DNA of 32,000 nt from Bellilinea caldifistulae (GTDB lineage: Bacteria > Chloroflexota > Anaerolineae > Anaerolineales > Anaerolineaceae), in assembly GCF_001306055.1 (NCBI RefSeq), contig NZ_LGHJ01000013.1, positions 90,001-122,000 on the forward strand. The letters are read 5' to 3'. Positions 2,060-19,029 of the stretch are shown piece by piece (within the stretch, counting starts at the first letter, position 1; each line of letters opens with the position of its first letter). Position numbers and translations under genes: made by a program. The notes below the pieces were generated by a model. That model made no database searches. It was given only the letters and a program-made list of their open reading frames with translations, and was not told the origin of the DNA.

Positions 2060-2086
2060 GGTTTCCTCCTTCATGCGGTTTACTAC

Positions 2087-2704: not shown

Positions 2705-2744
2705 CGGCTATTCGTATTATAGCCGAAAGTCAAAACCGGCAAGG
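2705..2744 (-). promoter_or_regulatory. candidate promoter with a palindrome over the -10 and start site, for the 205-aa ORF / hydantoinase unit
   Basis: Minus strand reads TTGCCG (2742-2737), a 15-nt spacer, then TATAAT (2721-2716). The ATG at 2704 is only 11 nt past the -10, which gives a near-leaderless mRNA. The inverted repeat CGGCTAT-N7-ATAGCCG (2705-2725) overlaps the -10 and the predicted start site. The short spacer lowers confidence. Confidence 0.35.
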
Positions 2745-2776
2745 AGATTTGCCGTAGAGCGGATGATCCTCCAGCC

Positions 2777-2817
2777 ACAAAAAGAGGATGGGGAGGGTAA
2801 AAGAATTTACCCTCCCC
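2777..2817 (-). terminator. rho-independent terminator after the large PLP enzyme gene
   Basis: Perfect 12-bp stem GGGGAGGGTAAA (2790-2801) / TTTACCCTCCCC (2806-2817) with a 4-nt loop. On the minus-strand RNA it is followed by AUCCUCUUUUUGU. It starts 27 nt after the stop codon at 2844. Confidence 0.65.
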
Positions 2818-2843
2818 GCTGGCACCAACGGCATAGTTTTTGC

Positions 2844-4310
2844 TTAAAGCAGCCCGGCTCGCTGGTTGAATTCGGTAATTAAGGCATCAATTTCCGGCAC
2901 CTGTTTCTGAATGTTCGTCCAGTAGTCCGGATCGTACCACTGCGCCACAATCTCTTCATAGGTCTTGCCCTGCTGCTCAACCCAGGTGTAGTACTTGAGA
3001 TTGTGGATCCGGCGGCGGTCTGCGTAGGTCAACTCAATCAAGTGATCGGTGGTTTCGCCGTGTAAATCACGGGCAAAAGTCTCGGCGGCATCGTAAGTTG
3101 TAAATTCACCAAACTGTTCGCGGTATTCCTGAATCCGGCTGGAATACAACTCCATCGAGTCGGTCATCACGAACAACATGATGTCGTTTTCGCCCATTTC
3201 GTAGTATTTGGCGGCTTTGATGGCTGAAAGCATGTTGGCAATCCCGGAAAAGCCGAACAGATCTAATTGCTGCACCAGTTCTGCCGGAACGCCCTTCTTG
3301 ACCAGATACTCACGGCCAGTTGGTTCATTGAAGAGACGCAACAAATTGACTACCGAATTATCATCAATTGCAACCACCATATCGGTGTTCTTCACATTGT
3401 GAATCCATGGCACATGCTTATCGCCGATACCTTCGATGCGGTGTGAACCAAAACCATTTTCCAACAAAGTCGGGCATTGAAGCGCCTCACTGGCGACAAT
3501 GATGCTGCGCGGGAAAATCTGCTTCATATAATCACCGCAGGCAATCGTACCGGCTGAACCGGTTGTCAATGCCACACCCCGGTAATTGTCCTTCGGCCCC
3601 ATCACCTGTTGCAAAACTTCTTCCATTGCGTGTCCGGTCACATCGTAATGCCACAGGTAATTGCCAAACTCTTCAAATTGATTGAAGATCATCAAATCTT
3701 CACCGGAGCGGCGCAGTTCCCAGCACTTATCGAAAATTTCTTTGACATTTGATTCAGAGCCGGGCGTGGCAATCACTTCTCCAGCAATCCGGGAAAGCCA
3801 CTCGAAACGTTCCTTACTCATACCCTCCGGCAGGATGGCAATAGACTGACAACCCAACAAGGCCGAGTCGTACGCCCCGCCGCGGCAGTAGTTACCGGTA
3901 GAAGGCCAGACCGCTTTTTGAGTGGTGGGGTCGAACTGACCGGTCACCAGCCGCGGCACCAGGCAGCCAAAAGCCGCGCCGACTTTATGCGCCCCGGTCG
4001 GGAACCATTTGCCCACCAGACCGATCAAGCGGGCTGGCACACCGGTCAGGCTGGAGGGTAATTCGATGAAATTGACGCCGCCGAACAAACCGCCAAAGGG
4101 TTTCGGCTCGTTTTTCCAGGTGATTCGGAAAAGGTTGCGGGGGTGTACATCCCATAAGCCAATGTTTCGCAATTCTTCCTTGATGTGGTCGGGTATTAAG
4201 TTCGGATTTTTCATTTGGGCAAAAGTCGGAATGATAATATTGCGTTCCTTTACCCGTTTTAATGCCCGCTCTCTGCGTTCTGGAATTACGGTTAAATCAA
4301 TGGTTGCCAT
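2844..4310 (-). CDS. large (about 488 aa) fold-type-II PLP-dependent enzyme (Trp-synthase-beta / cysteine-synthase superfamily), specificity unknown
   Basis: GKWFPTGAHKVGAAFG is the putative PLP lysine context. PSTGNYCRGGAYDSALLG and TTGSAGT resemble the Gly-rich phosphate loop. GAGGAG lies 7 nt before the sixth codon (ATG at 4310), so the start is trimmed from 4325. The first ORF-track ATG overlaps the GT2 stop (TAATG). Confidence 0.7.
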   Translation of the reverse strand: MATIDLTVIPERRERALKRVKERNIIIPTFAQMKNPNLIPDHIKEELRNIGLWDVHPRNLFRITWKNEPKPFGGLFGGVNFIELPSSLTGVPARLIGLVGKWFPTGAHKVGAAFGCLVPRLVTGQFDPTTQKAVWPSTGNYCRGGAYDSALLGCQSIAILPEGMSKERFEWLSRIAGEVIATPGSESNVKEIFDKCWELRRSGEDLMIFNQFEEFGNYLWHYDVTGHAMEEVLQQVMGPKDNYRGVALTTGSAGTIACGDYMKQIFPRSIIVASEALQCPTLLENGFGSHRIEGIGDKHVPWIHNVKNTDMVVAIDDNSVVNLLRLFNEPTGREYLVKKGVPAELVQQLDLFGFSGIANMLSAIKAAKYYEMGENDIMLFVMTDSMELYSSRIQEYREQFGEFTTYDAAETFARDLHGETTDHLIELTYADRRRIHNLKYYTWVEQQGKTYEEIVAQWYDPDYWTNIQKQVPEIDALITEFNQRAGLL

Positions 4311-4324
4311 CTGTTTTCTCCTCA

Positions 4325-5281
4325 TTAAGATTTGGTATTTTTTTCAAAATCTTCTGGGCTTTCGCTGACGATATACAGCGGCCGGCCCTTGGCTTCATCG
4401 TAAATTCGCCCGATATATTCGCCCAAAATTCCCAGGCAAATCAGCTGGACACCCCCCAGAAACAACACAGCGATGAGGGTGGTTGCCTGACCAAAAAACG
4501 CTTGCGCCTGAATGGCTCGCAAGATAATCACCACCGGAATGGCTAAAATAGCCAACCCCGCCGCAAAGAAGCCCAGATAAGTCGCCAGTTGGAGCGGAAA
4601 ATAGGAAAAACCGGTGATCGCGGTCAACGCAAGCCGCAGCATTTTACGCAGCGGGTATTTGGTTTCACCGGCAAAGCGGGGTGCCCGCCGGTAAAGCACG
4701 CCGGTTTGACGAAAACCCACCCATGCCGACATGCCGCGCAAAAAGCGATGATGTTCGCGCATGGTGTTCAATACATTGACCACCTTTCGATCCATCAATC
4801 GAAAGTCGCCGGCATCCATTGGAATATCCACATCTGTAATTCGGGCAATCAGACGATAGAAAAGGGAAGCCGTAAACTTTTTGAAGAAGGATTCCCCCTC
4901 CCTTTCGGCGCGCACCGCATAAACCACCTCATAACCTTCTTTCCACTTCTCAATCAAGTCCAAAATGACTTCCGGGGGGTCTTGCAAGTCAGCATCAATG
5001 ATCACAACAGCATCACCGCGGGAATAATCCAATCCGGCTGTCACCGCAATTTGATGACCGAAGTTTCTCGCAAACATGACCGGCCGTACACGTGGGTCTT
5101 GATTAGCCAACTCACGGATGATGTTAGGAGATTCATCCACCGATCCGTCATTGACCAGCACCAACTCCCATGGTTCAGCCGTGCGCTCCATAACTTCGAC
5201 CATGCGGCGGTAAAGCTCATGCAGACATGAGGCTTCGTTGTAGACCGGCACGACGATGGAATAAACTGGTTTTTCGGTCAT
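4325..5281 (-). CDS. family 2 glycosyltransferase, polyprenyl-phosphate sugar transferase type (GtrB/ArnC/DPM1-like)
   Basis: Motifs [20 protein letters not shown] and [11 protein letters not shown] (DxD), plus two C-terminal TM helices ([26 protein letters not shown] and [23 protein letters not shown]). Confidence 0.8.
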
Positions 5282-5318
5282 ATGTAAAATCTTTTCTCAC
5301 CTCACAAGGTATCGGTTT

Positions 5319-6566
5319 TCAAATTCCCAGATGTTTTTTTAAGGCACTCATGGTAGGCTCGATCACCGGCGCAGCCGGCACTGCTTGCATGGCAGCCCGG
5401 ATGTCCTTCAACCCGCTGCCGGTGTTAATGACCAGTACCGGATCCTCGGGCGTAATCTTACCCAAGGCAATGGCTTTCTTCAACCCAACATACGCTGTTG
5501 ATCCGGCCGGTTCGGCAAAGATACCAACCGGTCCAAGTTCTCCAATCCCGGCAATGATTTCTTCGTCCGAAACGGTGATGTACTCACCCCCCGTCTGACG
5601 GGCTGCCCGCACAGCCCGAACCCCATCTCGCGGCAAATCCACCGAAATGCTGTCGGCAATCGTGGTCGCCTGCACGGGTTCGATTTCTTCGGTGCCCTTA
5701 AAGAAGGCGTTGGCAACCGCTGCCGACTTTTCAGACTGGATGCCAAAAATGCGCGGCATTTTTTGCAGCCAGCCGAGCGCCTGCAAATCTTTGAAGCCTT
5801 TGTGCAGGCCTGAAATGATGTTGCCATCCCCCACTGAGACAAATACAGCCAGCGGTGGCAAATCCCGTTTCAGGTTCAAAATAACGTGTTCCCAAATCTC
5901 AAATGCAGCCGTTTTCTTACCTTCTGCCGTGAAGGGATTGTACCCCGTGTTGCGGCAGTACCAGCCGAACTCTTCAGCAGCCTGAATGGTCAGGTCAAAA
6001 GCCGAGTCGTAATTTCCATCCACCAGAATGACCTGTGCCCCGTACACCAGCAATTGGGCCACCTTAGCCGGGGGAGCCGTCTTAGGTGCAAAAATGACCG
6101 CTTTATGACCAACGGCGGCTGCCATTCCCGCCAGAGCCGCACCGGCATTCCCGGTTGAAGCGGTCACCACCACTTCGGCTCCAATTTGCCGGGCACGCGC
6201 CACCACCACCGAAGAAGCCCGGTCTTTAAACGAAGCGGTTGGATTACGCCCTTCGTCTTTGATCCACAAATGTCGCAGCCCCAACTTCTCAGCCAGGCGG
6301 GTCGGGTAATAGGTCGGCGTCCAGCCAGCCATGCGCAGCGGTGTACCTTCTCCCCCCGGGTCTTTGACGGGTAATAACGGCAAATAGCGCCACAGCGAAT
6401 AATCCGAGCGAGAAATGATGTCATTAATTTCGTATTTCTGCCGGATAGCAGCATAATCCAGCACAACATCCAGATTTCCGCCATCTTTCGGACAGGTATA
6501 GGTTACCTGTCCCGGCGCATACTCGGTGTTGCATAACGAACAGCGATAGCCAATAAATTCACTCAT
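5319..6566 (-). CDS. thrC: threonine synthase family PLP enzyme
   Basis: Motifs NPTASFKDRASS (PLP Lys), TASTGNAGAALAG and NTGSGLKD, with an N-terminal CSLC...TCP zinc-ribbon-like segment as in archaeal-type ThrC. It lies 28 nt downstream of the ABC permease gene, so its role in this context (housekeeping or catabolic paralog) is open. Confidence 0.65.
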   Translation of the reverse strand: MSEFIGYRCSLCNTEYAPGQVTYTCPKDGGNLDVVLDYAAIRQKYEINDIISRSDYSLWRYLPLLPVKDPGGEGTPLRMAGWTPTYYPTRLAEKLGLRHLWIKDEGRNPTASFKDRASSVVVARARQIGAEVVVTASTGNAGAALAGMAAAVGHKAVIFAPKTAPPAKVAQLLVYGAQVILVDGNYDSAFDLTIQAAEEFGWYCRNTGYNPFTAEGKKTAAFEIWEHVILNLKRDLPPLAVFVSVGDGNIISGLHKGFKDLQALGWLQKMPRIFGIQSEKSAAVANAFFKGTEEIEPVQATTIADSISVDLPRDGVRAVRAARQTGGEYITVSDEEIIAGIGELGPVGIFAEPAGSTAYVGLKKAIALGKITPEDPVLVINTGSGLKDIRAAMQAVPAAPVIEPTMSALKKHLGI

Positions 6567-6594: not shown

Positions 6595-7599
6595 TTATTC
6601 ATTCTCAAACGGTACGCCCAGTGAAGCCGGCGGCGAAGTACGCAATGCCCGTAGAACATTGGCAAGTCCCTTGCGGGTTTTCTCCGGTAAGGCTGCCAGC
6701 GTACGATCCACCCACTCAGCATTACCGATGTTGACCAGAAGGAGAGTTAAGATCATCAACGGGAAAGGCGCAACCTGTAAAACCTGGGAAGGGATGTTTG
6801 GCAAACTGGGTTGAAGCACCAAACCCAGCCACTGCAACAAACCAAACAGGTAAGCCCCAAATGCTGCCCGAAGCGGATTCCAGCCGCCAAAAATCGTCAG
6901 TGCAAGAGCAATCCACCCGAATCCATCCAGCCCGGAGATGGTACCCTTCCAGCCGGCTTTGACGCTCAAGGAAAACATCGGTCCCGCCAGACCTGCCAGC
7001 ATACCGCCCAATACGGTGTAAAAATACCGCATTCGATTGACATTTGCCCCGCGCACAAAAGCCGTTGCCGGTTTTTCCCCAATCCCCTGCAACATCAGAC
7101 CCGGACGGGTTTTGAAAATAAACACATACGAAACAATGATCAAAAGGAAACTGGCATAGACCAGTACATCCTGTTGAAAGAAGATGACCCCGATAATCGG
7201 AATATCCGCCAGCCCAGGAATGGGCAGGGAAGGCACCCGCGGCCCCTGCAAGCCCATGAATGGATTTCCAAGATAATAAGCCAGATCCCGGCAGGTAAGC
7301 GCCAGAATGAAACCAACCGCAACCTGAGACTGCTTGAGGGTGATGCTGCTAAACGCCACAATCAATGCCACCAGACCGCCGATGAATGCCCCCGCCAGAA
7401 AGCCCAAAAACAGACTGTTGGTGGTAACGGCAACCGCAAAACCTGCCATGGCGGTCAATAAGATTGTGCCGTTCAGGGAAAGGTTGATCACTCCGCTGCG
7501 TTCCGCAAAAGTTTCACCGATGGTTGCAAAGACAATCGGCGCCGATGAGGCTAAAACACCAGCCAGACCAATCAGGATGATTTGAGTATCCATTTCCAT
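6595..7599 (-). CDS. ABC transporter permease (BMP/nucleoside-type, NupQ/YufQ-like)
   Basis: 334 aa, about 8-10 TM helices, same operon as the BMP-family binding protein. The real start could be the second ATG at 7593. Confidence 0.8.
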   Translation of the reverse strand: MEMDTQIILIGLAGVLASSAPIVFATIGETFAERSGVINLSLNGTILLTAMAGFAVAVTTNSLFLGFLAGAFIGGLVALIVAFSSITLKQSQVAVGFILALTCRDLAYYLGNPFMGLQGPRVPSLPIPGLADIPIIGVIFFQQDVLVYASFLLIIVSYVFIFKTRPGLMLQGIGEKPATAFVRGANVNRMRYFYTVLGGMLAGLAGPMFSLSVKAGWKGTISGLDGFGWIALALTIFGGWNPLRAAFGAYLFGLLQWLGLVLQPSLPNIPSQVLQVAPFPLMILTLLLVNIGNAEWVDRTLAALPEKTRKGLANVLRALRTSPPASLGVPFENE

Positions 7600-7606
7600 A
7601 ACCTCA

Positions 7607-8653
7607 TCAAGAGCGTGTCAGACGGCGGCGGACGCCGTCCATCAACAACACGAACAGCACCAGCGAACCTTGCAACACCCCGGAAAGGGATGAATCCAGT
7701 TTCAAGACAATCGGCAACTGGATACTGCCGATATTCAAGGCGGCAAAGAACAAGGCAACCGGAGCTGCCCAAAGGGCTTGATAATTGACCAGCATGGCAA
7801 CCATCATGCCGAGAAATCCATAGCCGGACGAGATCGAAGGGATCAATCGGTGATAGACAGCTAAAACCTGAGTAGCGCCCGCCAGTCCAGCCATCAAACC
7901 GCACAACAAAAATGCCATCAACATGTAGCGGGTCGTAGGAATGCCCATCAAAAAGGCCGCCCTGCCGTTCCGCCCAACCGCTTTCAATCGCAGCCCAAAA
8001 TAAGTCCCGCGCAACAAAATATACACAATTGCAATTGCGATAATTCCCATTGCCAGTGCCAGAGGGCTGAGGCGAAAACCGGGCAGGGTAGGCAGCCATA
8101 ATTCCAGCGGGAATGGCTCGGTACCGCTCATCGAGCCAACCCCCGGACGTTTCCAGGGGCCGAAGATGAGCCAGATGGTCAATGCAGTCGCCACAAAGTT
8201 CAAACCAAGGCCGCCAAAAATTTCGTTAACGTTCCCAAAAATCTTCAGCAGGCCCACCAATCCTGCCCAGAACATACCTCCTAACGCCCCTGCCAGAAAT
8301 CCAACCGCCACAATTAACGTGGGTGGCAGGTCAGTCGGCTGTAATACTCGCAGCGCCCAGGTAGTGAAAATTGCCCCCAGCGTAATCTGACCTTCAATAC
8401 CGATGTTCCACAAACCCGCTGTAAAGGTCAGCAGCAATCCAGCCGTTGCTAATAGAAGGGGGGTCCAGGCTACCAGAATATCGTCAACTTTTGTCGGCGA
8501 GCCCAGGGCACCGGTAATGATGTTTTGATAAACCTGAAGAGGATCAGCCCCAGAAATCAACATGACAACCGTTGTAAAAGCCAACGCCAACAAAACGGCC
8601 AACGCTTGAAATCCAATGCCGCTCCAGCGTGAGGATGTCTTCATCATCGTCAT
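7607..8653 (-). CDS. ABC transporter permease (BMP/nucleoside-type, NupP/YufP-like)
   Basis: 348 aa polytopic protein. AAGGTG lies 5 nt before the ATG, and a 7-nt gap separates it from the next permease gene. Confidence 0.8.
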   Translation of the reverse strand: MTMMKTSSRWSGIGFQALAVLLALAFTTVVMLISGADPLQVYQNIITGALGSPTKVDDILVAWTPLLLATAGLLLTFTAGLWNIGIEGQITLGAIFTTWALRVLQPTDLPPTLIVAVGFLAGALGGMFWAGLVGLLKIFGNVNEIFGGLGLNFVATALTIWLIFGPWKRPGVGSMSGTEPFPLELWLPTLPGFRLSPLALAMGIIAIAIVYILLRGTYFGLRLKAVGRNGRAAFLMGIPTTRYMLMAFLLCGLMAGLAGATQVLAVYHRLIPSISSGYGFLGMMVAMLVNYQALWAAPVALFFAALNIGSIQLPIVLKLDSSLSGVLQGSLVLFVLLMDGVRRRLTRS

Positions 8654-8675
8654 ACCGTCACCTTGTGCCAGGGGA

Positions 8676-10139
8676 TTAAAAACCTTTACCGCCGATTAAC
8701 TGACCCAATTGTTCAACGGTAGTGGATTCGGCATCCAACGGTGGAGAAACCTTCCCGCCGTAAAACACCAGAATTCGGTCACTGTACTGCAAAATTTCCT
8801 CCAAATCCGCAGAAGTGAAAATGATACTTGTACCCTGCTTGCAGCGTTCTTTTAATTTTCCCCAAATCCAAATAGCCGACTCAATATCCAAACCGCGGGT
8901 GGGGTGTTCTAGCAGCAGTAAATTCACTGGCTGGCGCAACATCGCCAGCAAAGCGCGCTGTTGATTGCCACCGGAAAGAGACTCAACCGTACTGACCGGT
9001 GTTCCTTTGATGTTGAAATCTTCAATCCTCTGACGGGTGGTCGCCAGGGCTTTGTCAAAGTTGATAAAGAAACCATTTTGCTCTTCAGCCAGTATAAAAT
9101 GCTCGGTCAAAGACAGACCGGGGATTAACCCCTCTTCCATACGTGAGGCAGGCACATAGGCGATTCCCGCCTCCAAAAAAGCCCGGTAGGGTTTTCCGGT
9201 CAATCGGCGGCCGCCCAGATTAATCTCACCGGCCACCGGGCGGATCAAACCGGCGCAGGTGCGTAAAAACTGCACCTGGCCAGAACCTTCCATACCGGCT
9301 AATCCAATCACCTCTCCGCAGCTCACCGTAAGATTGATATCTCGAATTTGCAGGCGGTAATCTTCAATGGTAACATGATCGAGATGAAAGGAAACATCAC
9401 AGGTTTCGTATCGGCGTTTTTCCTCTAAACTAATCACGCGGCCGAACATCAATTTGACCAATTCATCGGTGACATACGGCGGGTCAACTTCTCCCACCAG
9501 TTCACCCTTTCGGAAAACCGCAATCCGATCGCACAGAAACTCGACATCCTCCAATTTGTGCGAGACAAAAATTACCGACATGCCCTGTGCGGCTAATTTT
9601 CGTAAGGTTTCGAACAACTTTTCTTTTTGAGAAGCACTGATCCCCGTTGTGGGTTCATCCAGAATCAGCACCCGCGCACCCAACCAGAGCAAACGCAGGA
9701 TTTCCAACTGCTGACGTTCTCCTACCGTCAGGGTATCCACATACGCATAAGGATCAATGCTGAAACCAAACTGGCTTTGTAACTCGTTGAACGCACGCAC
9801 CACCTCGCGGCGGTTGGGGAATAAACCCCCATCCTGACCAATCAGCAAGTTATCCACCACCCGCATGGGTGGAAAATCGAGCGGATCTTGATGAAGCATA
9901 CCAATCCCCATTCGGATGGCATCCGAGGGGGAACTGATTTTAACCGGTGTTCCATCCAGCCGAATTTCTCCTGAATCGGCCTGAATATAGCCGGAAAGGA
10001 TTTTCATCAGAGTGCTTTTGCCGGCTCCATTTTCTCCGAGAATGCCCTGAATCTTCCCGGATTCAACCGTCAGGTTGATATCATTGTTTGCATGAACTGC
10101 ACCAAAATGTTTGTGGATGTGAATCAGTTCAACCTTCAT
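8676..10139 (-). CDS. ABC transporter ATP-binding protein with two fused nucleotide-binding domains (NupO/RbsA-like)
   Basis: Walker A GENGAGKST, first-domain signature-like LTVGERQQLEI, ILDEPT, and second-domain LSGGNQQR and LLLEHPTRGLD. Confidence 0.9.
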   Translation of the reverse strand: MKVELIHIHKHFGAVHANNDINLTVESGKIQGILGENGAGKSTLMKILSGYIQADSGEIRLDGTPVKISSPSDAIRMGIGMLHQDPLDFPPMRVVDNLLIGQDGGLFPNRREVVRAFNELQSQFGFSIDPYAYVDTLTVGERQQLEILRLLWLGARVLILDEPTTGISASQKEKLFETLRKLAAQGMSVIFVSHKLEDVEFLCDRIAVFRKGELVGEVDPPYVTDELVKLMFGRVISLEEKRRYETCDVSFHLDHVTIEDYRLQIRDINLTVSCGEVIGLAGMEGSGQVQFLRTCAGLIRPVAGEINLGGRRLTGKPYRAFLEAGIAYVPASRMEEGLIPGLSLTEHFILAEEQNGFFINFDKALATTRQRIEDFNIKGTPVSTVESLSGGNQQRALLAMLRQPVNLLLLEHPTRGLDIESAIWIWGKLKERCKQGTSIIFTSADLEEILQYSDRILVFYGGKVSPPLDAESTTVEQLGQLIGGKGF

Positions 10140-10193
10140 GCAGAACTCAGCCTTCTAACACCAAAAGTCCTTCCATCTGGCTCGTGCTTCCAT

Positions 10194-10227
10194 TTTGGGG
10201 GCTGCCGCATCTGCGGCAGCCCCCAAA
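10194..10227 (-). promoter_or_regulatory. intercistronic GC-rich stem-loop between the binding-protein and ATPase genes
   Basis: Perfect 16-bp inverted repeat TTTGGGGGCTGCCGCA / TGCGGCAGCCCCCAAA separated by 2 nt. No flanking U-tract in either orientation. It sits 21 nt after the binding-protein stop codon. Confidence 0.6.
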
Positions 10228-10247
10228 TCCATATAGGATGTGAATGA

Positions 10248-11570
10248 TTAGTTACTGGGAACGCTCTGTCCTTCCATGCCTTCCAGCAATTGCGGCAGAT
10301 ACCAGACTTGCAAGTCAGTAGCCACCTCACCCTCGGCAAGGAACGGCGTGCCATCCTGGTAATTCAAAGGACCCACGAACAGGTTCAAACCACCAGCCAG
10401 TTCGGCGATGAATTTTTCCACATTGGCTTTGGCATCCGCGCTGAGCGCATCGCCAAACACAAAGCCGACCGCGGAGGTATCGTGGTTGTTGATGTTCGTC
10501 CAGTCCGGTCCTAGCCATTCAAAATAGGATTTGAAAGTACCGGCTTTAACCTGTTCAACAGCCCGCAGGTAAGCAGGCCCCCAGTTGAAGTACGGCACAC
10601 CCAAACATACTTCCGGTGCTTCGGCGCAAGCACCTTCATAGTCATACGGAATTGCCCAGACTTCTTTTCCGGCAGCACGGGCTTTGCTGGCCTGAACCAA
10701 TGCTTCGGTGGTGTCAATACCGGAGATGACCACATCGTAACCGCTGTTCAGGAAATCATCCGCAACCTGGGTGGGGTCGGCGGTGAAACCGGGGATGTTG
10801 AACCAGAAGCCGATCCAGGTAACTTTGAACTTCAGGTCGGCCGGGTTCTTGCCAGCGTATTTCTCATAGCAGTACTTGGCACCCAGGTAAGCCGAAGCCG
10901 TCAGACGGCGGGTCTCATCATTGATCAACGGGCCGAGATAGCCAATCTGGCCTGTCTTGGTGGTCAGGGCAGCAGCACAACCGGCAATCATCTTACCGTA
11001 TTCCATTCTCCCCATCGTGTTGCCGAATTTGGGGAATTCAATGTAATTTACGCCTTCTTTCCAGGAGGTATCACCGGAAGCGTGAATGACCGGCACATCA
11101 GGATGGGCACGGGCAAAGTTAATGGCGCCATCCTTCATATCATCCGAGTTGAAGATAATCAACTTTGCACCCTTCGAAAGTAAATCCTCCGCCAGCTGTT
11201 CGGGGGTTGTGCCGGGTCGGTCAGCCGGGTTAACTTTGTCAATGTAGATCAGCTTGACGCCAGGGATTTTCTTTTCAACATACAGACCGGCATCATAATG
11301 AGCCTGACTCCAGCCGCGGTCATTGTACGGTCCCACCAGAAGCATACCGATGATGAACTCTTCCGGTTCGGCGGGTGGTTGAGTCGGCTGCGGTTCGGCG
11401 GGTGGTTGAGTCGGCTGCGGTTCGGCGGGTGGTTGAGTCGGCTGCGGTTCGGCGGGCGGTTGAGTCGGCTGGGGCGCCTGAGTTGGAGTGGCTGCCGGTT
11501 GGCAGGCTGACACCAAAAGGGTGAGCAGTAAAACAAAGCTCATGACAAACCAGATGCGTTTGGATTTCAT
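10248..11570 (-). CDS. BMP-family (PnrA/Med/NupN-like) ABC substrate-binding lipoprotein with a repetitive Pro-rich tether
   Basis: Signal peptide plus lipobox LLVSAC, then a QPAATPTQAPQPTQPPAEPQ...x4 linker, then a periplasmic binding fold (LVGPYNDRGWSQAHYDAG, GYLGPLINDETRR). GGAGGAG occupies ORF-track codons 1-3 just upstream of the later ATG, so the start is trimmed from 11582 to 11570 (MKSKRIWF). Confidence 0.85.
   Translation of the reverse strand: MKSKRIWFVMSFVLLLTLLVSACQPAATPTQAPQPTQPPAEPQPTQPPAEPQPTQPPAEPQPTQPPAEPEEFIIGMLLVGPYNDRGWSQAHYDAGLYVEKKIPGVKLIYIDKVNPADRPGTTPEQLAEDLLSKGAKLIIFNSDDMKDGAINFARAHPDVPVIHASGDTSWKEGVNYIEFPKFGNTMGRMEYGKMIAGCAAALTTKTGQIGYLGPLINDETRRLTASAYLGAKYCYEKYAGKNPADLKFKVTWIGFWFNIPGFTADPTQVADDFLNSGYDVVISGIDTTEALVQASKARAAGKEVWAIPYDYEGACAEAPEVCLGVPYFNWGPAYLRAVEQVKAGTFKSYFEWLGPDWTNINNHDTSAVGFVFGDALSADAKANVEKFIAELAGGLNLFVGPLNYQDGTPFLAEGEVATDLQVWYLPQLLEGMEGQSVPSN
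11364..11471. repeat. 4 x 27-bp perfect or near-perfect tandem repeat inside the lipoprotein linker
   Basis: CGGTTCGGCGGGTGGTTGAGTCGGCTG occurs at 11364, 11391 and 11418 (identical copies) and at 11445 (one T-to-C change). It is in frame and encodes PAEPQPTQP x4. Confidence 0.95.
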
Positions 11571-11855
11571 TTTCTCCTCCATTGTTCAATTAAAAGCGAG
11601 AGATTTGGAAACGTTTGACTGTGGGATCAGGGATAAACTCAAATCTTTTCCTTCTACCAACCTCCTTTCTTGATCTTTGAAAAACATAGGGAAACCATCT
11701 TGACCACCCCATTCCGGGTTTACATTAAGGGTCGGGGGGCAAACCCTGAATTACCTTACTATTTTACACGAAATAGATACCGGTAGAAGAAGAAACTCGC
11801 TCCAAACGCTGGCAATATAATTAAACCCCAGATTAGCTTAAATCATTTGAGGGGT

Positions 11856-11898
11856 GGGTCTGCCTGATACGATCATATCAGGCAGACCCTTGTTTTTT
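11856..11898. terminator. terminator-like hairpin immediately after carbamate kinase, with its T-tract on the plus-strand side
   Basis: Perfect 14-bp stem GGGTCTGCCTGATA (11856-11869) / TATCAGGCAGACCC (11876-11889) with a 6-nt loop. On the plus strand it is followed by TTGTTTTTT (11890-11898). On the minus-strand RNA the hairpin is preceded by an A-tract and followed by ACCCCUCAAAUGAUUU. Confidence 0.5.
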
Positions 11899-11903
11899 GA
11901 GGT

Positions 11904-12857
11904 TTATGGGACGATCCAGGTACCGGTTTCGCCCTTCAACGCGCGGCCGATATTTTCCGGATTGGTGATTAATGCCTGTTTGCCGCCGGCTTCCAGGAAC
12001 CAGATGATCGCCTGAATCTTGGGCGCCATCGAGCCTTTGGCAAAGTGAGTGCCTTCCGCCAGATACTGCTTGGCTTCCGCTAATGTCATGCGGTCAATCC
12101 ACTTCTGGTCGGGTTTTCCGAAATTCAAGGCAACTTTTTCCACGGCGGTGGAAATGACCATCAGGTCGGCATTGATCTCGCGCGCCAGAAGACTGCTGGC
12201 GTAATCCTTGTCAATCACCGCTGCCACGCCCTGCAAGTCACCCTGCTCATTGCGGACGACGGGGATACCACCACCGCCAACCGTAATGACAACCACACCG
12301 GCATCCAGCAGGGTTTTAACCGCCGGCAATTCAACCACTTCCTGTGGAATGGGAGAAGCAACCACCCGCCGCCAGCCCCGGCCGGCATCCTCGACAACCT
12401 TCCAACCCATTTCCTTCTCGCGGCGTTTTGCCTCGGCTTCATCCATAAAACCACCAATGGGTTTGGTAGGGTTCTGAAAAGCCTTGTCATTCGGATCAAC
12501 CCGCACCTGCGTAACCACCGTTGCGACCGATTTTTCGATTCCGCGGCGGCGCAGTTCATTTTGCAGGTTTTGCTGCAAGGCATAGCCAATGGCACCCTGT
12601 GAGTCGGCCCCGCAGACATCCAGCGGAACTTCGTGCATTCCTTCTACCTTTGCGGCAATTTCGGAACGGCGCAGAATAAACCCAACCTGCGGGCCATTGC
12701 CATGTCCAATCGCCACATCCCAACCCGCCTCAATCATATCCACGATATGATAGGCGGTCTCTTTGGCGGCCTGGTACTGATCTTCAACCGATACTTTGGA
12801 GTTATCCTTGATCAGCGAATTTCCGCCGATTGCCACAACTGCCAGTTTTTTAGCCAT
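11904..12857 (-). CDS. arcC: carbamate kinase
   Basis: Motifs VVAIGGNSL, GHGNGPQVG, ITVGGGGIPVV and AVIDKDYASSLLA. The ORF-track start at 12866 is a TTG too close to the SD, while the ATG at 12857 lies 11 nt after GAGAGGAG. Confidence 0.9.
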   Translation of the reverse strand: MAKKLAVVAIGGNSLIKDNSKVSVEDQYQAAKETAYHIVDMIEAGWDVAIGHGNGPQVGFILRRSEIAAKVEGMHEVPLDVCGADSQGAIGYALQQNLQNELRRRGIEKSVATVVTQVRVDPNDKAFQNPTKPIGGFMDEAEAKRREKEMGWKVVEDAGRGWRRVVASPIPQEVVELPAVKTLLDAGVVVITVGGGGIPVVRNEQGDLQGVAAVIDKDYASSLLAREINADLMVISTAVEKVALNFGKPDQKWIDRMTLAEAKQYLAEGTHFAKGSMAPKIQAIIWFLEAGGKQALITNPENIGRALKGETGTWIVP

Positions 12858-12894
12858 AAATTCCAATTCTCCTCTCTCAAAGTGATAATTTTTT

Positions 12895-13875
12895 TTAGCC
12901 CATCGTCAGCGCCATCACCGCCATCTGGGCATGCATGCGGTTTTCGGCTTCATCGTACACAACCGATTGAGGGCCGTCCATCACACCGTCGGTGACTTCG
13001 ATGTTGCGGTCGGCCGGCAAGGGATGCATATAAATAGCGTCTTCTTTGGCCAGCGCCATCTTGCGTTCATCCGTGATCCAGTGAGAGTATTTCTTGATAA
13101 TCTCAGCGCCCTCATTGGCATCCGGCGTATGCACCATTGCGCCCCATGATTTGGCGTAGATGATATCGGCATCCTTGAAAGCCTCTTCCATATCATCTAC
13201 CACTTCAAAACCGACTTTGTACTTACGTGCCTGCTCCTGCGCCATCTCCATCACTTCCGGCATCAGGCGGAATTCAGGCGGATGCGCTAAAACCACATCC
13301 ATGCCAAAGCGCGGCATCTGCACAATCAAAGATTGCGGCACGGACATCGGCTTTTGATAGGAAGCCGCATACGCCCAGGAAACCACCATCTTTTTACGGC
13401 GCAAATCGCGCCCTTTCTTTTCGACAATGGTCATCAGGTCTGCCAGACACTGGAAGGGATGCCAGATATCGCACTGCATATTCAACACAGGCACACGGGA
13501 GTATTTAGCCACTTCGCTGATGTACTTGTTGCCGACACCCCAGTCCACATGCCGAATTGCAATCCCATCGAAATAGCGGCCGAAAATCTCACCAATTTCT
13601 TTGGGGGTATCGCCATGGGCAATTTGAGTGGTGCGGCTCTCGATAAAGGCGGCATGCCCGCCAAGGTGCGCCATGCCCGCTTCAAATGAACCGCGTGTGC
13701 GGGTGCTGCTGAAGAAGAACAGCATCGCCAGCACTTTATCGCGCAGGTAGGCGGTAGACTCATTCAAAGCACGCTTGCGCTTGAGGTCAAAAGCAACATC
13801 CAGGATAGTTTCGACTTCTTCTTTCGAGAAATCGAGATCCCCGATTAAGTCACGTCCGTGAAGAAAGGTTTGCAT
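12895..13875 (-). CDS. OTCase-superfamily transcarbamylase of unknown specificity (YgeW/AOTCase-like, not canonical ornithine carbamoyltransferase)
   Basis: The carbamoyl-phosphate motifs SSTRTR and HPFQ are present. HCLP is replaced by HPLP (YMHPLPAD). The ornithine motif DxxxSMG is absent, with IIYAKSWGAM in its place. GGAGG lies 4 nt before the ATG. Confidence 0.8.
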   Translation of the reverse strand: MQTFLHGRDLIGDLDFSKEEVETILDVAFDLKRKRALNESTAYLRDKVLAMLFFFSSTRTRGSFEAGMAHLGGHAAFIESRTTQIAHGDTPKEIGEIFGRYFDGIAIRHVDWGVGNKYISEVAKYSRVPVLNMQCDIWHPFQCLADLMTIVEKKGRDLRRKKMVVSWAYAASYQKPMSVPQSLIVQMPRFGMDVVLAHPPEFRLMPEVMEMAQEQARKYKVGFEVVDDMEEAFKDADIIYAKSWGAMVHTPDANEGAEIIKKYSHWITDERKMALAKEDAIYMHPLPADRNIEVTDGVMDGPQSVVYDEAENRMHAQMAVMALTMG

Positions 13876-13902
13876 GTTTCCTCCAAATTTCAGCAGTAAA
13901 AC

Positions 13903-14859
13903 TTACTCCATCTTGCCCAGAACCAGCGCAAGCAGTGCCATGCGCATCACAACGCCGTTGTAGGCTTCCTGCCAGTAACGTGACCAGCGAGTAATGTCCA
14001 CATCGGTGGGGATTTCATCCATACGCGGCAGCGAGTGCAGCAGGATCGCATCCGATTTGGCTTTGGTGGTGAGCAATTCGCGGGTAATCTTGTAATTCGA
14101 GGGGGTCATGCCGACGTCCTTGCCAGCGCGCTCATCGCGGGCTTTGGTGTAGTCCGGCTGCACCACCGGCTCAACCAGAATGACATCCGCCTCGGCAATT
14201 GCCTGCTCGACATGCTCCACCTCGCGGAAGTTCAAACTGTAGGATTTCAGTTCTGCCTTGAATTCTTCGGTCAGCGACATTTCCGGCGGGGAAACGAAGG
14301 TGATCGGGCAGTCGAATTGAGTCAAAGCATAGCCGAGCGAGTGCATGGTGCGCATGCGCATATCGCCTACTGCAAGCCACTTCAAGCCGTCAATGCGGCC
14401 TTTTTCGCGCAGCACGGTGTATAGATCGGTCAAAATCTGGGTGGGATGTTCACCCCAGCCATCCCCACCGTTGATGATCGGTACCGAAGCCCACTTGGCC
14501 GCTTCGTGCGGTGCTCCCTGCTGGAAGTGACGCATGACGATCACATCACCGTAGAACTCCAGCATTTTAACGGTATCCTTGATCGATTCTTGATACCAGT
14601 CACCGGCGCGGGTCATCTTGGCATCCGCGAAACCGGTCACGTGCCCGCCCAAACGGTGCATGGCTGCTTCGTGCGCCAGGCGGGTGCGGGTGCTGGGTTG
14701 ATAAAAAGCCGTCACCAGGGTTTTATCCTTGCACAGGTCAATATTTTTTCGTTCGCGGGCAATGTCTTCCATTTTCCGCGCCACTTCAAACACATGGAAG
14801 AATTCCTGCCGTTCGAAGTCCTTCAAAGACAGAATATCACGACCAGCAAAACTACGCAT
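13903..14859 (-). CDS. ATCase-like transcarbamylase paralog with altered second-substrate residues
   Basis: Shows PSTRTR, VMRH, GDGWGEHPTQ, GDMRMRTMHS and LHSLPRMDEI...NGVVMRMALLALVLG, which match the E. coli/archaeal-type PyrB layout. However, the TRxQ aspartate-binding segment reads EPVVQ, KGE is absent (DWYQES instead), and HPLPR is HSLPR. There is no pyrI or pyrC next to it. Confidence 0.75.
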   Translation of the reverse strand: MRSFAGRDILSLKDFERQEFFHVFEVARKMEDIARERKNIDLCKDKTLVTAFYQPSTRTRLAHEAAMHRLGGHVTGFADAKMTRAGDWYQESIKDTVKMLEFYGDVIVMRHFQQGAPHEAAKWASVPIINGGDGWGEHPTQILTDLYTVLREKGRIDGLKWLAVGDMRMRTMHSLGYALTQFDCPITFVSPPEMSLTEEFKAELKSYSLNFREVEHVEQAIAEADVILVEPVVQPDYTKARDERAGKDVGMTPSNYKITRELLTTKAKSDAILLHSLPRMDEIPTDVDITRWSRYWQEAYNGVVMRMALLALVLGKME

Positions 14860-14884
14860 TTTGATTACCTCCGTTTGTATTTTT

Positions 14885-14927
14885 GAAATTGAAACTCGAA
14901 GTGAACTTGGTCATTCGTTTAAATTTC
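14885..14927 (-). promoter_or_regulatory. long imperfect palindrome in the leader of the transcarbamylase / carbamate kinase operon
   Basis: GAAATTGAAAC (14885-14895) pairs with GTTTAAATTTC (14917-14927) at 10 of 11 positions. The inner arms CGAAGTGA / TCATTCG add more pairing. It lies 26 nt upstream of the ATCase-like ATG. Confidence 0.4.
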
Positions 14928-14992
14928 TGATCCGGTCAAAACCGAAATTGCAGCCATTGCAGCCAACAAGGTTTTGAAATCACCTCCTCTTT

Positions 14993-15736
14993 TCACACAT
15001 GGTTAACGTTCGGATGGCTGGCTACTCTCCGTACCAGATGGAAACGAAAATATCCGGGCAGGAAGTAACTGTGGGAGTAATCCACCACCCGCCCGCCATC
15101 ATCATAAAGATATACCTCAAACAGCAGCAGGGGATCGCCACGTTGAATTTCCAATGCTTTTGCAATTTCCGAAGAAGCCGAAGTGGCATTGATCTCCGTG
15201 TAAGAATTCATCAGGTTAAGGTCACCCCGTTTGAGTAAAAAGTCCAGCACCGAGCCGGTGAAACCCTGCTCTAACTCGGCGGGGGAAAGGATGTTTTCCG
15301 GCAAAATGTCAATCAGGTAGGCAACCGGCCTGTGCTCCGTGGTGATCACCCGCTCAACCTTTATGAGAGGTGTCCCTTTTTCCACATTCAGGTTGTCAGC
15401 CAGCATCGGATCTGCTTCCAGGCGGATAATCTTAACCTCGCCCATGTACACTTTAAGGTTGATTTTTTCGGCCAGGCTCTCAATGCTTTGCAAAACTTCC
15501 AGACCGGTTTCAATCACCTGCACATGACTGACCACGAAAGTGCCAATTCCCTGTCTTCGGCGAATTAAGCCCTGCCCTTCGAAGGAGCGCATCGCCTCTC
15601 GCAGGGTTGCCCGCGAAACCCCCAGTTGCTTGGCAAGCGCAGGTTCGGAAGGCAGCCGCTCGCCTGGCGGAGTTCGGGCAATAATTTCAGCCAGTTCTAC
15701 TTGAAGTCTTTGAAAAGGATGGATCATCGTATCCAT
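14993..15736 (-). CDS. GntR-family transcriptional regulator, HutC subfamily (UTRA effector domain)
   Basis: N-terminal winged HTH LPSEPALAKQLGVSRATLREAMRSFEGQGLIRRRQGIGTFV, with a C-terminal UTRA-like fold. The ORF-track start at 15760 is a TTG overlapping the ade stop. GAGAGAGG followed by ATG at 15736 is the better start. Confidence 0.85.
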   Translation of the reverse strand: MDTMIHPFQRLQVELAEIIARTPPGERLPSEPALAKQLGVSRATLREAMRSFEGQGLIRRRQGIGTFVVSHVQVIETGLEVLQSIESLAEKINLKVYMGEVKIIRLEADPMLADNLNVEKGTPLIKVERVITTEHRPVAYLIDILPENILSPAELEQGFTGSVLDFLLKRGDLNLMNSYTEINATSASSEIAKALEIQRGDPLLLFEVYLYDDGGRVVDYSHSYFLPGYFRFHLVRRVASHPNVNHV

Positions 15737-15749
15737 GTTTCCTCTCTCA

Positions 15750-17543
15750 TCAGGATTCAACGACCGGCAGGAAGCGGAAACGGCTTACATCCACCAGTCC
15801 GCGGTCGGAGATACGCAACGCTGGGATCACCACCAGCGCCAGTAAACTGAGTTGCATATTTGGATTATTCAATGAACATCCGCAAGCCTTAAAGCCTTGC
15901 AAGACGCTGTCGGCTTCTGCCGCCACCATTTCGGCGCGTTTGTTGGACATCAAACCGGCGATGGGAAGGTGAACCATTCCGATGATCTGGCCATCCTTGA
16001 TCACCACCTGCCCGCCGCCAACTTCTGCAAGATGATTGGCCGCCTGCGCCATCATCGCCTCATCCGTCCCCACAACAATCATGTGATGACTGTCATGAGC
16101 CACCGTAGTGGCAATCGCACATTTCTGGTCAAAACCAAACCCCGAGACCAATCCCACCTGCACAACCCCGCTGGCATGGTGGCGTTCAACCAGCGCAATT
16201 TTTGCTAGGTCGGTTTCCCCCGCCAACATCACTTGCCCATTGACCACTTTCACTTCGCGCTTCAAATGGCGAGTAGGCGCTTGATTTTCAATCACACCAA
16301 TGACATTGGCAAGTACTTTTCCATTTTCAGGGTGCTGGACAGCCAGATTAAAATCCTGCGGGGTAAGCGGACGCTTCAACCGAACCGAATGGACTGCCCA
16401 GTCGGGATAAGCATAAACCGGTAATTCGATCAGCAAATTTCCACCGCTGGCAATCACTTTCCCCTTCGCAATGACCAAATCCGCACGGAAATTGACCAGA
16501 TCTTCGACAATGACAATATCGGCAAAGCGGCCGGGAGCAATCATCCCCAGATCGCGGCTGACGCCAAAGTGAACCGCAGTGTTAAGGGTTGCCATCTGGA
16601 TTGCCTGCATCGGTTTCAACCCCTGTGCAATTGCATGGCGGAGAACACGATCCATGTGGCCTTCCTGAACGAGCGTAGCCGAATGCGAATCATCCGTGCA
16701 GAGGATGAAATGGCGCGGGTCTAAACCTAAATCTGTAACGGCTTTGACCTGAGCCGCTACATCATGCCAGGCTGAGCCGTAACGCATCATCACCTTCATC
16801 CCCTGACGCACCCGCTGAACCGCATCCTCCAGAGTTGTGCCTTCATGGTCATCCTCCGGGCCGCCGGCCACATAACCGTGAAACGGTAAACCCAGATCCG
16901 GCGAAGCGTAATGACCACCAATTACCTTCCCGGCTTTGCGGGTTTCCTCTAATTCTGCATGAACGTTTGGGTCACTGTTGAAAACGCCGGGAAAATTCAT
17001 CATCTCGCCAAGCCCGATGATTCCCTCCCACCGCATTGCCTCAGCAATCTCTTTGGGGCCAATCGCCGCACCGGGTGTTTCCAAACCGGGAGCCGAAGGA
17101 ACACACGATGGCATTTGCACGAATACGTGAATTGGCTGATTGGCTGCCTCATCCGCCATCAGCTGCACCCCTTTCAATCCAAATACATTGGCAATCTCGT
17201 GAGGGTCAATGAACATGCCGGTTGTGCCGCGGGGTGCCACGGCGCGCACAAATTCTGTCACGGTCAACATACCCGATTCGACGTGCATATGGGCATCCAG
17301 CAAGCCGGGGCTGAGGTAGCGCCCCTCGGCCTCAACGATGCGGGTGTGTTCGCCAATCGTATGCTCTGCCGAATCTCCCACAAAAGCAATTCTCCCGTCC
17401 AAAACCGCTACATCCGTAGAAGGAATAATCTCACCCGACTGCACGCAAACCCATTTGCCGTTGCGAATAACCAGGTCAGCCGGAATGCGCCCCATGGCGC
17501 AATCCACCAATCTACGAGTGTTCTCGGCGGTTAACTTTTCCAT
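15750..17543 (-). CDS. ade: adenine deaminase
   Basis: 597 aa with PGLLDAHMHVESGM, GTTGMFIDPHEIANV and CTDDSH, the length and layout typical of Ade/AdeC. GGAGGT lies 6 nt before the ATG. Confidence 0.9.
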   Translation of the reverse strand: MEKLTAENTRRLVDCAMGRIPADLVIRNGKWVCVQSGEIIPSTDVAVLDGRIAFVGDSAEHTIGEHTRIVEAEGRYLSPGLLDAHMHVESGMLTVTEFVRAVAPRGTTGMFIDPHEIANVFGLKGVQLMADEAANQPIHVFVQMPSCVPSAPGLETPGAAIGPKEIAEAMRWEGIIGLGEMMNFPGVFNSDPNVHAELEETRKAGKVIGGHYASPDLGLPFHGYVAGGPEDDHEGTTLEDAVQRVRQGMKVMMRYGSAWHDVAAQVKAVTDLGLDPRHFILCTDDSHSATLVQEGHMDRVLRHAIAQGLKPMQAIQMATLNTAVHFGVSRDLGMIAPGRFADIVIVEDLVNFRADLVIAKGKVIASGGNLLIELPVYAYPDWAVHSVRLKRPLTPQDFNLAVQHPENGKVLANVIGVIENQAPTRHLKREVKVVNGQVMLAGETDLAKIALVERHHASGVVQVGLVSGFGFDQKCAIATTVAHDSHHMIVVGTDEAMMAQAANHLAEVGGGQVVIKDGQIIGMVHLPIAGLMSNKRAEMVAAEADSVLQGFKACGCSLNNPNMQLSLLALVVIPALRISDRGLVDVSRFRFLPVVES

Positions 17544-18985: not shown

Positions 18986-19029
18986 GGTAAAACCATTCTC
19001 GTTTTTTGAACAGGGGTGGGGAAAATCCT

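Follow-up and report, generated by a model that had tools for sequence, protein, structure and literature searches.

Two transcarbamylases in tandem with carbamate kinase in Bellilinea caldifistulae: a candidate phosphorolytic module of purine catabolism

The reductive purine pathway encoded by the ygeW-ssnA region of Escherichia coli was solved by two studies in 2025 (bioRxiv 10.1101/2025.04.24.650524; PMC12507026). According to these studies, urate is first reduced to 2,8-dioxopurine; a second reduction follows, for which an F420 luciferase-like enzyme is presumed in Chloroflexota. Ring opening by SsnA and HyuA yields 2,3-diureidopropionate. One of its ureido groups is phosphorolysed by YgeW, and the carbamate kinase YqeA makes ATP from the carbamoyl phosphate. 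Finally, YgeY hydrolyses the other ureido group and YgeX converts diaminopropionate to pyruvate by deamination. Here we analyse a locus of Bellilinea caldifistulae (Anaerolineae, Chloroflexota) that carries two transcarbamylase genes, referred to as TC-A and TC-B, in tandem with a carbamate kinase gene (CK). The locus occupies positions 11904-14859 of a 32,000-nt stretch of contig NZ_LGHJ01000013.1 (positions 90,001-122,000), hereafter the window.

TC-B and CK resemble YgeW and YqeA of E. coli in that a transcarbamylase gene adjoins a carbamate kinase gene. Described clusters of E. coli and Clostridium contain a single transcarbamylase and leave the second ureido group to YgeY, whereas the Bellilinea locus adds a second transcarbamylase, of the aspartate transcarbamylase (ATCase) type. 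No mention of a two-transcarbamylase form of the pathway was found in the set of papers searched. The published neighbourhood survey (2025 pathway work) scored "YgeW" by Pfam PF00185, so one transcarbamylase could not be told from two.

Unusual members of the ATCase branch were defined as "pseudo-ATCases" by Barba et al. 2013 (PMC4016543), with the ATCase of Pyrococcus abyssi as their closest relative. Two of them are relevant here. Rxyl_2847 of Rubrobacter xylanophilus, encoded beside a carbamate kinase gene, phosphorolyses allantoate (Barba et al. 2013, PMC4016543), a diureido acid one carbon shorter than 2,3-diureidopropionate. In Nocardioides sp. JS614, pseudo-ATCase A1SH59 ("ATC_III_HSLP") is paired with A1SH60, a YgeW-type transcarbamylase (YTC), beside xdhABC and hyuA; no function was proposed for this pair (PMC4016543). 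An earlier note on the window regarded an ATCase-type enzyme recruited for catabolism as unusual. This was overstated, as Rxyl_2847 and the Nocardioides pair had already been described (PMC4016543).

The interval is filled by exactly three open reading frames (ORFs) on the minus strand, TC-A, TC-B and CK, separated by spacers of 27-28 nt (Table 1). TC-A starts with ATG preceded by a GGAGG site. The CK ORF opens at TTG, and the ATG at 12857, three codons inward, is the likely true start. Its product scores well above the NCBIfam cut-offs for carbamate kinase (NF009007, 435.9 against 266; TIGR00746, 394.8 against 358.25).

All motifs that the earlier note had named are present in the translations (STRTR, HPTQ, EPVVQ and HSLPR in TC-A; STRTR, HPFQ, YAKSWGAM and HPLP in TC-B), and the losses of second-substrate motifs that it had reported were borne out by alignments. 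Neither the Arg and Gln of ATCase in TC-A nor the SMG of ornithine transcarbamylase (OTCase) in TC-B is conserved after proper alignment. Compared with solved ATCases and E. coli PyrB (whose numbering is used), TC-A retains S52-R56, R105, H134, Q137, R167 and L267. Its replacements comprise E50 to Q, S80 to R, K84 to Y, T228 to E, R229 to P, Q231 to V, R234 to D and P266 to S, together with a one-residue deletion at 165. The FxExSTR motif is thus lost (FYQPSTR), the 80s loop reads TRAGDWYQES, and EPVVQPDY stands in place of the RxQxER motif of the 240s loop. In ATCase, R229 and Q231 hold the beta-carboxylate of aspartate, while R167 and K84 position its alpha-carboxylate (Shi et al. 2015). N-carbamoyl-aspartate, which the earlier note had offered as a possible substrate, is therefore unlikely, since R229, Q231 and K84 are all gone. 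The protein fits the traits of the Nocardioides-type pseudo-ATCases: STRT and HPTQ are kept, H[ST]LP replaces HPLP, RxQ is absent and a ygeW homologue is adjacent. By these residues, TC-A is a pseudo-ATCase whose carbamoyl-phosphate site is intact and whose second-substrate site is altered.

AlphaFold2 predicts TC-A with high confidence (pLDDT 95.2), and P. abyssi ATCase 1ml4 is both the nearest solved structure (TM 0.88) and the best PDB sequence match (E 3e-70). TC-A shares the fold and 34-41% identity with canonical ATCases (1ml4, E. coli PyrB), but differs from them in the replaced residues E50, S80, K84, R229, Q231, R234 and P266 and in its neighbourhood, which contains neither pyrI nor pyr genes. 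A search of 1.8 billion cluster representatives gave just two close clusters for TC-A (70-73% identity), after which identity drops to 43-52%. Many of these distant relatives have an 80s loop of the R80/Y84 type and lack RxQxER. One of them (P0249; 46% identity) combines ESVVRPDYT with HSLPR; it was not counted as having the same function, its context being an actinomycete-type regulator, an HMGL-like protein and an aminotransferase. In 121 cluster representatives of the TC-A family, the segments TRAGD[WF]YQESIK, GDMRMRTMHS, EPVVQPDYT and HSLPRMDE are invariant.

To place TC-A among ATCases, a neighbour-joining tree was constructed from 75 sequences with 200 bootstraps. The TC-A family is monophyletic in 200/200 bootstraps and groups, again in 200/200, solely with sequences lacking RxQxER. 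It lies outside the canonical ATCase clade, so that placement within a bona fide PyrB clade, part of a refuting condition in the earlier note, does not apply to TC-A. This position argues that TC-A is not a drifted PyrB. Database names suggest the opposite, i.e. that the two proteins are ordinary anabolic enzymes (TC-A a PyrB, TC-B an ArgF) whose motifs have drifted. TC-A, for which an identical protein is on record from B. caldifistulae, is indeed named aspartate carbamoyltransferase and passes the corresponding TIGR00670 model (252.9 against 236.95), though it falls below NF002032 (230.2 against 263). We regard an anabolic role as extremely improbable: FxExSTR, RxQxER, S80/K84 and HPLP are all lost from TC-A in a family-fixed manner, TC-B stays under all OTCase cut-offs, the operon neighbours are CK and purine genes rather than pyr or arg genes, and the published tree contains a separate OTCase of Anaerolinea thermophila.

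In TC-B, the DxxxSMG motif is missing (AKSWGAM is found instead) and HPLP replaces HCLP. The protein lies beneath every NCBIfam cut-off, both for the OTCase-like models (OTC NF001986, 259.7 against 306; TIGR00658, 255.9 against 280.85; AOTC, 252.9 against 288) and for YgeW (NF005538, 206.5 against 453; TIGR03316, 195.2 against 500). BLASTP nevertheless aligns it with E. coli YgeW at 36% identity (E 4e-64). Segments that the earlier note had pointed out as YgeW-like proved real: QIAHG, WAY.SY.KP.SVPQ, RFGMDV.LAHP and MEEAFKDADI.Y.KSW are common to both proteins. Eight residues have been proposed to bind the second substrate of YgeW (Q98*, Q160, K270, D124, S200, K203, D334 and E344; Shi et al. 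2015). TC-B matches all of them except D124, which is replaced by H, and the seven retained residues are invariant in 20 members of the TC-B family. Knotted members are marked in sequence by an extended 120s loop and a proline-rich loop; these segments, too, align between TC-B and YgeW, and both are missing in ArgI.

As the earlier note had remarked, TC-B is about 70 residues shorter than YgeW. The difference is due to missing insertions and terminal helices: the extra helices at the N- and C-terminus and the two-helix insert in the 240s loop are lacking. With YgeW residues and loops kept but helices and insert gone, TC-B is, by its sequence, best described as a minimal YgeW-type enzyme. An AlphaFold2 model of TC-B built from a shallow alignment (pLDDT 53) was too poor to show a trefoil knot and was not used. 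TC-B is 79% identical to E8MZ16 of A. thermophila and 65% to Nocardioides A1SH60, both of which Barba et al. 2013 (PMC4016543) place in their YTC clade.

Hence the closest described counterpart of the tandem is the Nocardioides pair. TC-A is 68% identical to A1SH59 in the published trimmed supplementary alignment (PMC4016543); AKMTRAG.FYQES, GDGWGEHPTQ, GDMRMRTMHS, YMEPVVQ.DYT and HSLPRMDE are common to both, and TC-A can be considered an orthologue of A1SH59 on this sequence evidence. HPLP is likewise common to TC-B and A1SH60. The Nocardioides pair was known from a single organism, whereas stretches matching the Bellilinea-type TC-A occur in at least several hundred genomes, and the pair described here is linked to CK, purine deaminases and a transporter.

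Rxyl_2847 (ureidoglycine carbamoyltransferase, UGTCase) also resembles TC-A. It belongs to the ATCase branch, lacks RxQ, contains H(T/S)LP, is encoded next to CK in a purine cluster and acts phosphorolytically on a diureido acid. However, it keeps the Ser and Lys of the 80s loop (S102*, K106*) where TC-A has R/Y, and it is accompanied by uricase and allantoinase of the oxidative pathway, while the context of TC-A points to the reductive one. A representative bearing HTLP (P0261, not necessarily a UGTCase itself) is about 43% identical to TC-A.

Catabolic OTCase and putrescine transcarbamylase, when coupled to CK, follow the same energy logic, in which a ureido compound and phosphate give carbamoyl phosphate and then ATP. 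Their pathways use other substrates, and TC-B, devoid of DxxxSMG and of putrescine-enzyme motifs, falls below their HMM (hidden Markov model) cut-offs. Arginine and agmatine deiminase readings were rejected, as no deiminase gene is nearby and OTCase and putrescine-enzyme motifs are absent. So was the oxalurate reading, since the oxamate transcarbamylase of E. coli is a member of another protein family.

Related loci were identified by scanning one genome per species with TC-A-specific peptide patterns. The scan gave at least 573 matching stretches, the best 80 of which were examined, and window proteins were mapped onto these loci. All 80 are genomes of Anaerolineae type, with TC-A identity of 86-98%. 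Their genes follow a fixed order: amidohydrolase of the 8-oxoguanine deaminase family, adenine deaminase, GntR/UTRA regulator, in some loci a YgeY-family hydrolase, TC-A, TC-B, CK and a BMP-type ABC transporter, often followed by a threonine-synthase-like protein and a pyridoxal phosphate (PLP) protein of about 490 residues. TC-B lies directly 3' of TC-A in 64 of the 70 loci with sufficient room, and CK comes next in 62 of 69. Such recurrence means that the tandem arrangement is no chance resemblance, and the pair together with CK forms a fixed unit across at least 80 Anaerolineae loci examined. No canonical ATCase was found in the 80 fetched loci.

Exceptions to the adjacency of TC-A and TC-B are insertions, such as a Wadjet island or small mobile genes. 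The gap after TC-A gathers them: a gene for 23S-rRNA-intervening-sequence protein is found there in two loci (L002, 11036-11404; L003), and a Wadjet JetA/JetC defence island in a third (L032, 2873-8360). In L011 (around 10970-11950) a frameshift has probably broken the TC-B match into two blocks. In L059 (6201-10951), TC-A is divergent to another set of genes, namely CK (40% identity), a ThrC-like enzyme and an OTCase-like gene (39% to ArgI), with no TC-B.

Three loci (L017, L073 and L078) join the pair with SsnA and xanthine dehydrogenases (Xdh); F420-linked redox genes are present in two of them and hydantoinase in one. The order in L017 is XdhD-like protein, FAD subunit, two PLP enzymes, F420-type luciferase-like reductase, YgeY, TC-A, TC-B, CK, SsnA, Xdh and hydantoinase. 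YgeY is missing from the otherwise similar L073. SsnA of L017 and L073 and YgeY of L017 and L009 pass NCBIfam cut-offs. These loci thereby resemble the E. coli 2,8-dioxopurine cluster, with its SsnA, YgeY, hydantoinase and Xdh, and add the F420 reductase noted for Chloroflexota. In L078, TC-A is found beside a YgeW 72% identical to that of E. coli, again with SsnA and Xdh. This metagenome-assembled genome is labelled Verrucomicrobiia, and its Anaerolineae-type TC-A (87% identity) next to YgeW (8144-10954) could reflect horizontal transfer or a binning error.

In the 80 species-level loci (L005-L084), TC-A is the best-conserved protein of the cluster (median identity 89%; CK 80, TC-B 79, the two deaminases 76 and 69, GntR 58), which is unusually tight for a catabolic enzyme. 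Its conservation would be explained if TC-A were a non-catalytic, structural or regulatory partner of TC-B or CK, for instance a scaffold channelling carbamoyl phosphate. We hold this to be highly improbable: most residues that bind carbamoyl phosphate in the ATCase fold (S52-T55, R105, H134, Q137 and L267) are invariant in the 121 representatives (S80, K84 and P266 being replaced), and the fold model is confidently ATCase-like.

The association of the trio with purine genes bears on its likely role. CK, purine deaminases and BMP transporter are fixed beside the pair, and YgeY, SsnA, Xdh, F420 reductase or hydantoinase accompany it in some genomes; TC-A, TC-B and CK are for this reason very probably a catabolic purine module. 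The catabolic direction assumed in the earlier note is supported by the CK link and the gene neighbourhood. Its pyrimidine-type example substrates are not supported, the neighbouring genes serving purines.

Under a scheme of reductive pyrimidine catabolism, along the lines suggested in the earlier note, dihydropyrimidinase would yield N-carbamoyl-beta-alanine or N-carbamoyl-beta-aminoisobutyrate, to be phosphorolysed by the two transcarbamylases. Catabolic enzymes of this kind were speculated on by Shi et al. 2015, and the window hydantoinase passes the TIGR02033 "dihydropyrimidinase" model. The scheme is nonetheless quite improbable. Neither the window nor L002, L017 and L073, the loci for which every gene was annotated, contains a dihydropyrimidine dehydrogenase. 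Adenine and 8-oxoguanine deaminase genes are the constant neighbours, joined by SsnA and Xdh in three loci. YgeW substrate residues are present in TC-B, and TC-A keeps R167, the binder of an alpha-carboxylate that beta-amino acids do not have.

The reading favoured here is that the trio constitutes a phosphorolytic, ureido-cleaving ATP module in the form that the reductive purine/urate (2,8-dioxopurine) pathway takes in Anaerolineae; we give this reading about an even chance. TC-B would perform the YgeW step on 2,3-diureidopropionate, while TC-A would phosphorolyse the other, alpha (2-) ureido group. The candidate substrate of TC-A would be 3-amino-2-ureidopropionate or the diureido compound itself, each corresponding to carbamoyl-aspartate whose beta-carboxylate has given way to an amino or a ureido group; in the former, -CH2-NH3+ stands in place of -CH2-COO-. 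Both carbamoyl groups would leave as carbamoyl phosphate, CK would produce two ATP per purine instead of one, and the hydrolysis by YgeY would become optional. Two successive ureido intermediates, one of the options raised in the earlier note, give the best fit to current knowledge of the YgeW pathway.

An alpha-ureido role of TC-A is suggested by the retention of R167 combined with charge reversal of the former beta-carboxylate site (R229 to P, R234 to D, T228 to E, K84 to Y). The serine of HSLP was also counted as fitting a ureido substrate, as in H(T/S)LP of the allantoate enzyme, where this Ser/Thr has been suggested to contact the second ureido nitrogen (Shi et al. 2015). That TC-A acts on exactly this alpha-ureido-type substrate is a tentative assignment from sequence, somewhat short of an even chance. 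With similar reserve we suggest that a fully phosphorolytic reductive purine pathway, converting both ureido groups to carbamoyl phosphate, may operate in some actinobacteria and in Anaerolineae, the latter with at least several hundred species-level genomes.

The distribution of YgeY can be read in two ways. A YgeY-family gene occurs within 10 kb in only 18 of the 48 loci with full flanks, and there is none in the window; the many loci without it were counted in favour of the module proposed here. Using the YgeY-family hydrolase of L009 as query, no B. caldifistulae entry appeared among the best 120 matches, a list filled by sequences of at least 79% identity (79-95%), so that this negative carries little weight. 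Yet YgeY directly precedes TC-A in 27 of 77 loci. Such co-occurrence would be expected if the module is purine-catabolic but TC-A acts on some other ureido compound, with YgeY or another hydrolase performing the second decarbamoylation. Candidate substrates would then be ureidomethylhydantoin or 5-ureido-dihydrouracil, whose ureido group is free while the ring is still closed, or else allantoate, the substrate of the Rubrobacter enzyme. SsnA products already bear a free ureido group (2025 papers), and an allantoate-active pseudo-ATCase sharing the H(T/S)LP motif with TC-A exists. On the other hand, the window and the loci with gene-by-gene annotation show no uricase or allantoinase (other loci were not queried for either), and the D-hydantoinase model fits the window hydantoinase much better than the allantoinase one. 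The 80s loop of TC-A has R/Y instead of the Ser/Lys of the allantoate enzyme, and many loci lack YgeY within 10 kb. We rate another ureido substrate as rather unlikely, though of appreciable probability.

Several points weigh against the two-step phosphorolytic module. The substrates attributed to TC-A, TC-B and CK are inferred from sequence. With YgeY present in about a third of loci, two ureido groups would face three decarbamoylating enzymes; TC-A is therefore no simple replacement, but adds to YgeY or alternates with it. The 2025 papers contradict each other on YgeW: in one, loss of the 3-ureido group leaves 3-amino-2-ureidopropanoate, whereas in the other the 2-ureido group is lost and albizziin results. 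D-(R) configuration is reported for the intermediates, but the aspartate bound by ATCase is the L-isomer, so the argument from the ATCase pocket may not transfer directly. Two successive phosphorolyses are thermodynamically uphill and need strong downstream pull. Finally, SsnA, Xdh and ring reductase genes are absent from the 32-kb window, and its amidohydrolase belongs to the 8-oxoguanine deaminase family instead of being SsnA.

Features of the window are listed in Table 1.

Table 1. Features of the B. caldifistulae window (window coordinates)
Feature	Position	Strand	Remarks
TC-A, ATCase-fold pseudo-ATCase	13903..14859	-	318 aa; Pfam OTCace_N + OTCace
TC-B, short YgeW-type (YTCase) transcarbamylase	12895..13875	-	326 aa; both Pfam transcarbamylase domains
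Carbamate kinase (CK)	11904..12866	-	320 aa; curated HMM cut-offs passed
Intergenic region 5' of TC-A	14860..14992	-	Holds GGAGG ribosome-binding site
Hairpin, perfect 14-bp stem	11856..11889	.	15 nt past CK stop codon
GntR/HutC-type regulator (GntR + UTRA domains)	14993..15760	-	Pfam; just upstream of TC-A, in 65/80 loci
Adenine deaminase	15750..17543	-	TIGR01178 509.8 vs cut-off 472.5; syntenic in 54/80 loci
Amidohydrolase, 8-oxoguanine deaminase family, 462 aa	17597..18985	-	NF006055 699.7 vs cut-off 532; syntenic in 54/80 loci
BMP-family ABC uptake system	6595..11582	-	Pfam Bmp, ABC_tran, BPD_transp_2; after CK in most loci
BMP system binding lipoprotein	10248-11582	-	Pfam Bmp
BMP system ATPase	8676-10139	-	Pfam ABC_tran
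BMP system permeases	7607-8653 and 6595-7599	-	Pfam BPD_transp_2
Threonine-synthase-like PLP enzyme	5319..6566	-	PALP domain; best PDB match threonine synthase, E 1e-47
493-aa PLP-fold protein, cluster-linked	2844..4325	-	Weak PALP/CysK similarity
D-hydantoinase / dihydropyrimidinase, HyuA-like	638..2074	-	TIGR02033 527 vs cut-off 393

The intergenic region upstream of TC-A is likely the start of the TC-A/TC-B/CK transcription unit. No conserved operator was found there in a comparison of 10 loci, the GGAGG ribosome-binding site being the only common element. The hairpin following CK probably marks the 3' end of the unit or stabilises RNA, and may do so without being a classic terminator. On the gene strand it is preceded by an A-run and no T-run follows, which makes a terminator role uncertain; the T-run belongs to the opposite strand.

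The 462-residue amidohydrolase was ruled out as SsnA, as it is only 23% identical to the E. coli protein and fits the 8-oxoguanine deaminase model. Antisense to its gene, at 17624-19009 on the plus strand, a 461-residue ORF encodes an Arg/Gln/His-rich sequence of low complexity; a shadow ORF caused by the GC-rich coding strand is almost certainly the explanation. In the BMP lipoprotein, a tandem repeat of four 27-nt units (11364-11471; 98% matches) encodes a PTQPPAEPQ linker after the signal.

The window contains neither YgeY nor a YgeX orthologue. It differs from the E. coli cluster in the absence of the latter, and two other PLP enzymes are present. The threonine-synthase-like one was ruled out as a YgeX orthologue on comparison with YgeX; its gene adjoins the TC/CK genes in five loci (L010, L017, L037, L073, L083). 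The 493-residue PLP-fold protein has no characterised close relative, its best PDB matches being cysteine synthases (1e-14). It is 78% identical to the product of the gene directly 3' of CK in L002, and relatives are also found in L010, L017, L037, L041, L073, L078 and L082-L084. Judging from sequence and linkage, both proteins are candidates for downstream deamination, the role of YgeX. The hydantoinase is 38% identical to E. coli HyuA over its full length. Together with the ThrC-like enzyme, a GT2 glycosyltransferase, the 493-residue protein and a 205-residue protein with no family match, it forms a sub-cluster (638-6566) conserved in L064 and L084.

None of the single elements is new to the literature, neither the protein families nor the tandem pair nor the pathway. 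New are the fixed unit of pair and CK in Anaerolineae and the proposal that the pair of pseudo-ATCase and YgeW-type enzyme belongs to the reductive purine pathway, from which the idea of a doubly phosphorolytic, two-ATP variant follows. If true, this would provide the first function for Nocardioides-type pseudo-ATCases, which have been without one since 2013, and a second energy-conserving step in the anaerobic purine pathway. An enzyme specific for alpha-ureido groups would also help to settle the dispute over YgeW regiochemistry, and hundreds of "aspartate / ornithine carbamoyltransferase" annotations in Chloroflexota would be corrected. Anaerolineae are abundant fermenters of digesters, sediments and wastewater, and purine fermentation yielding two ATP could matter to their lifestyle.

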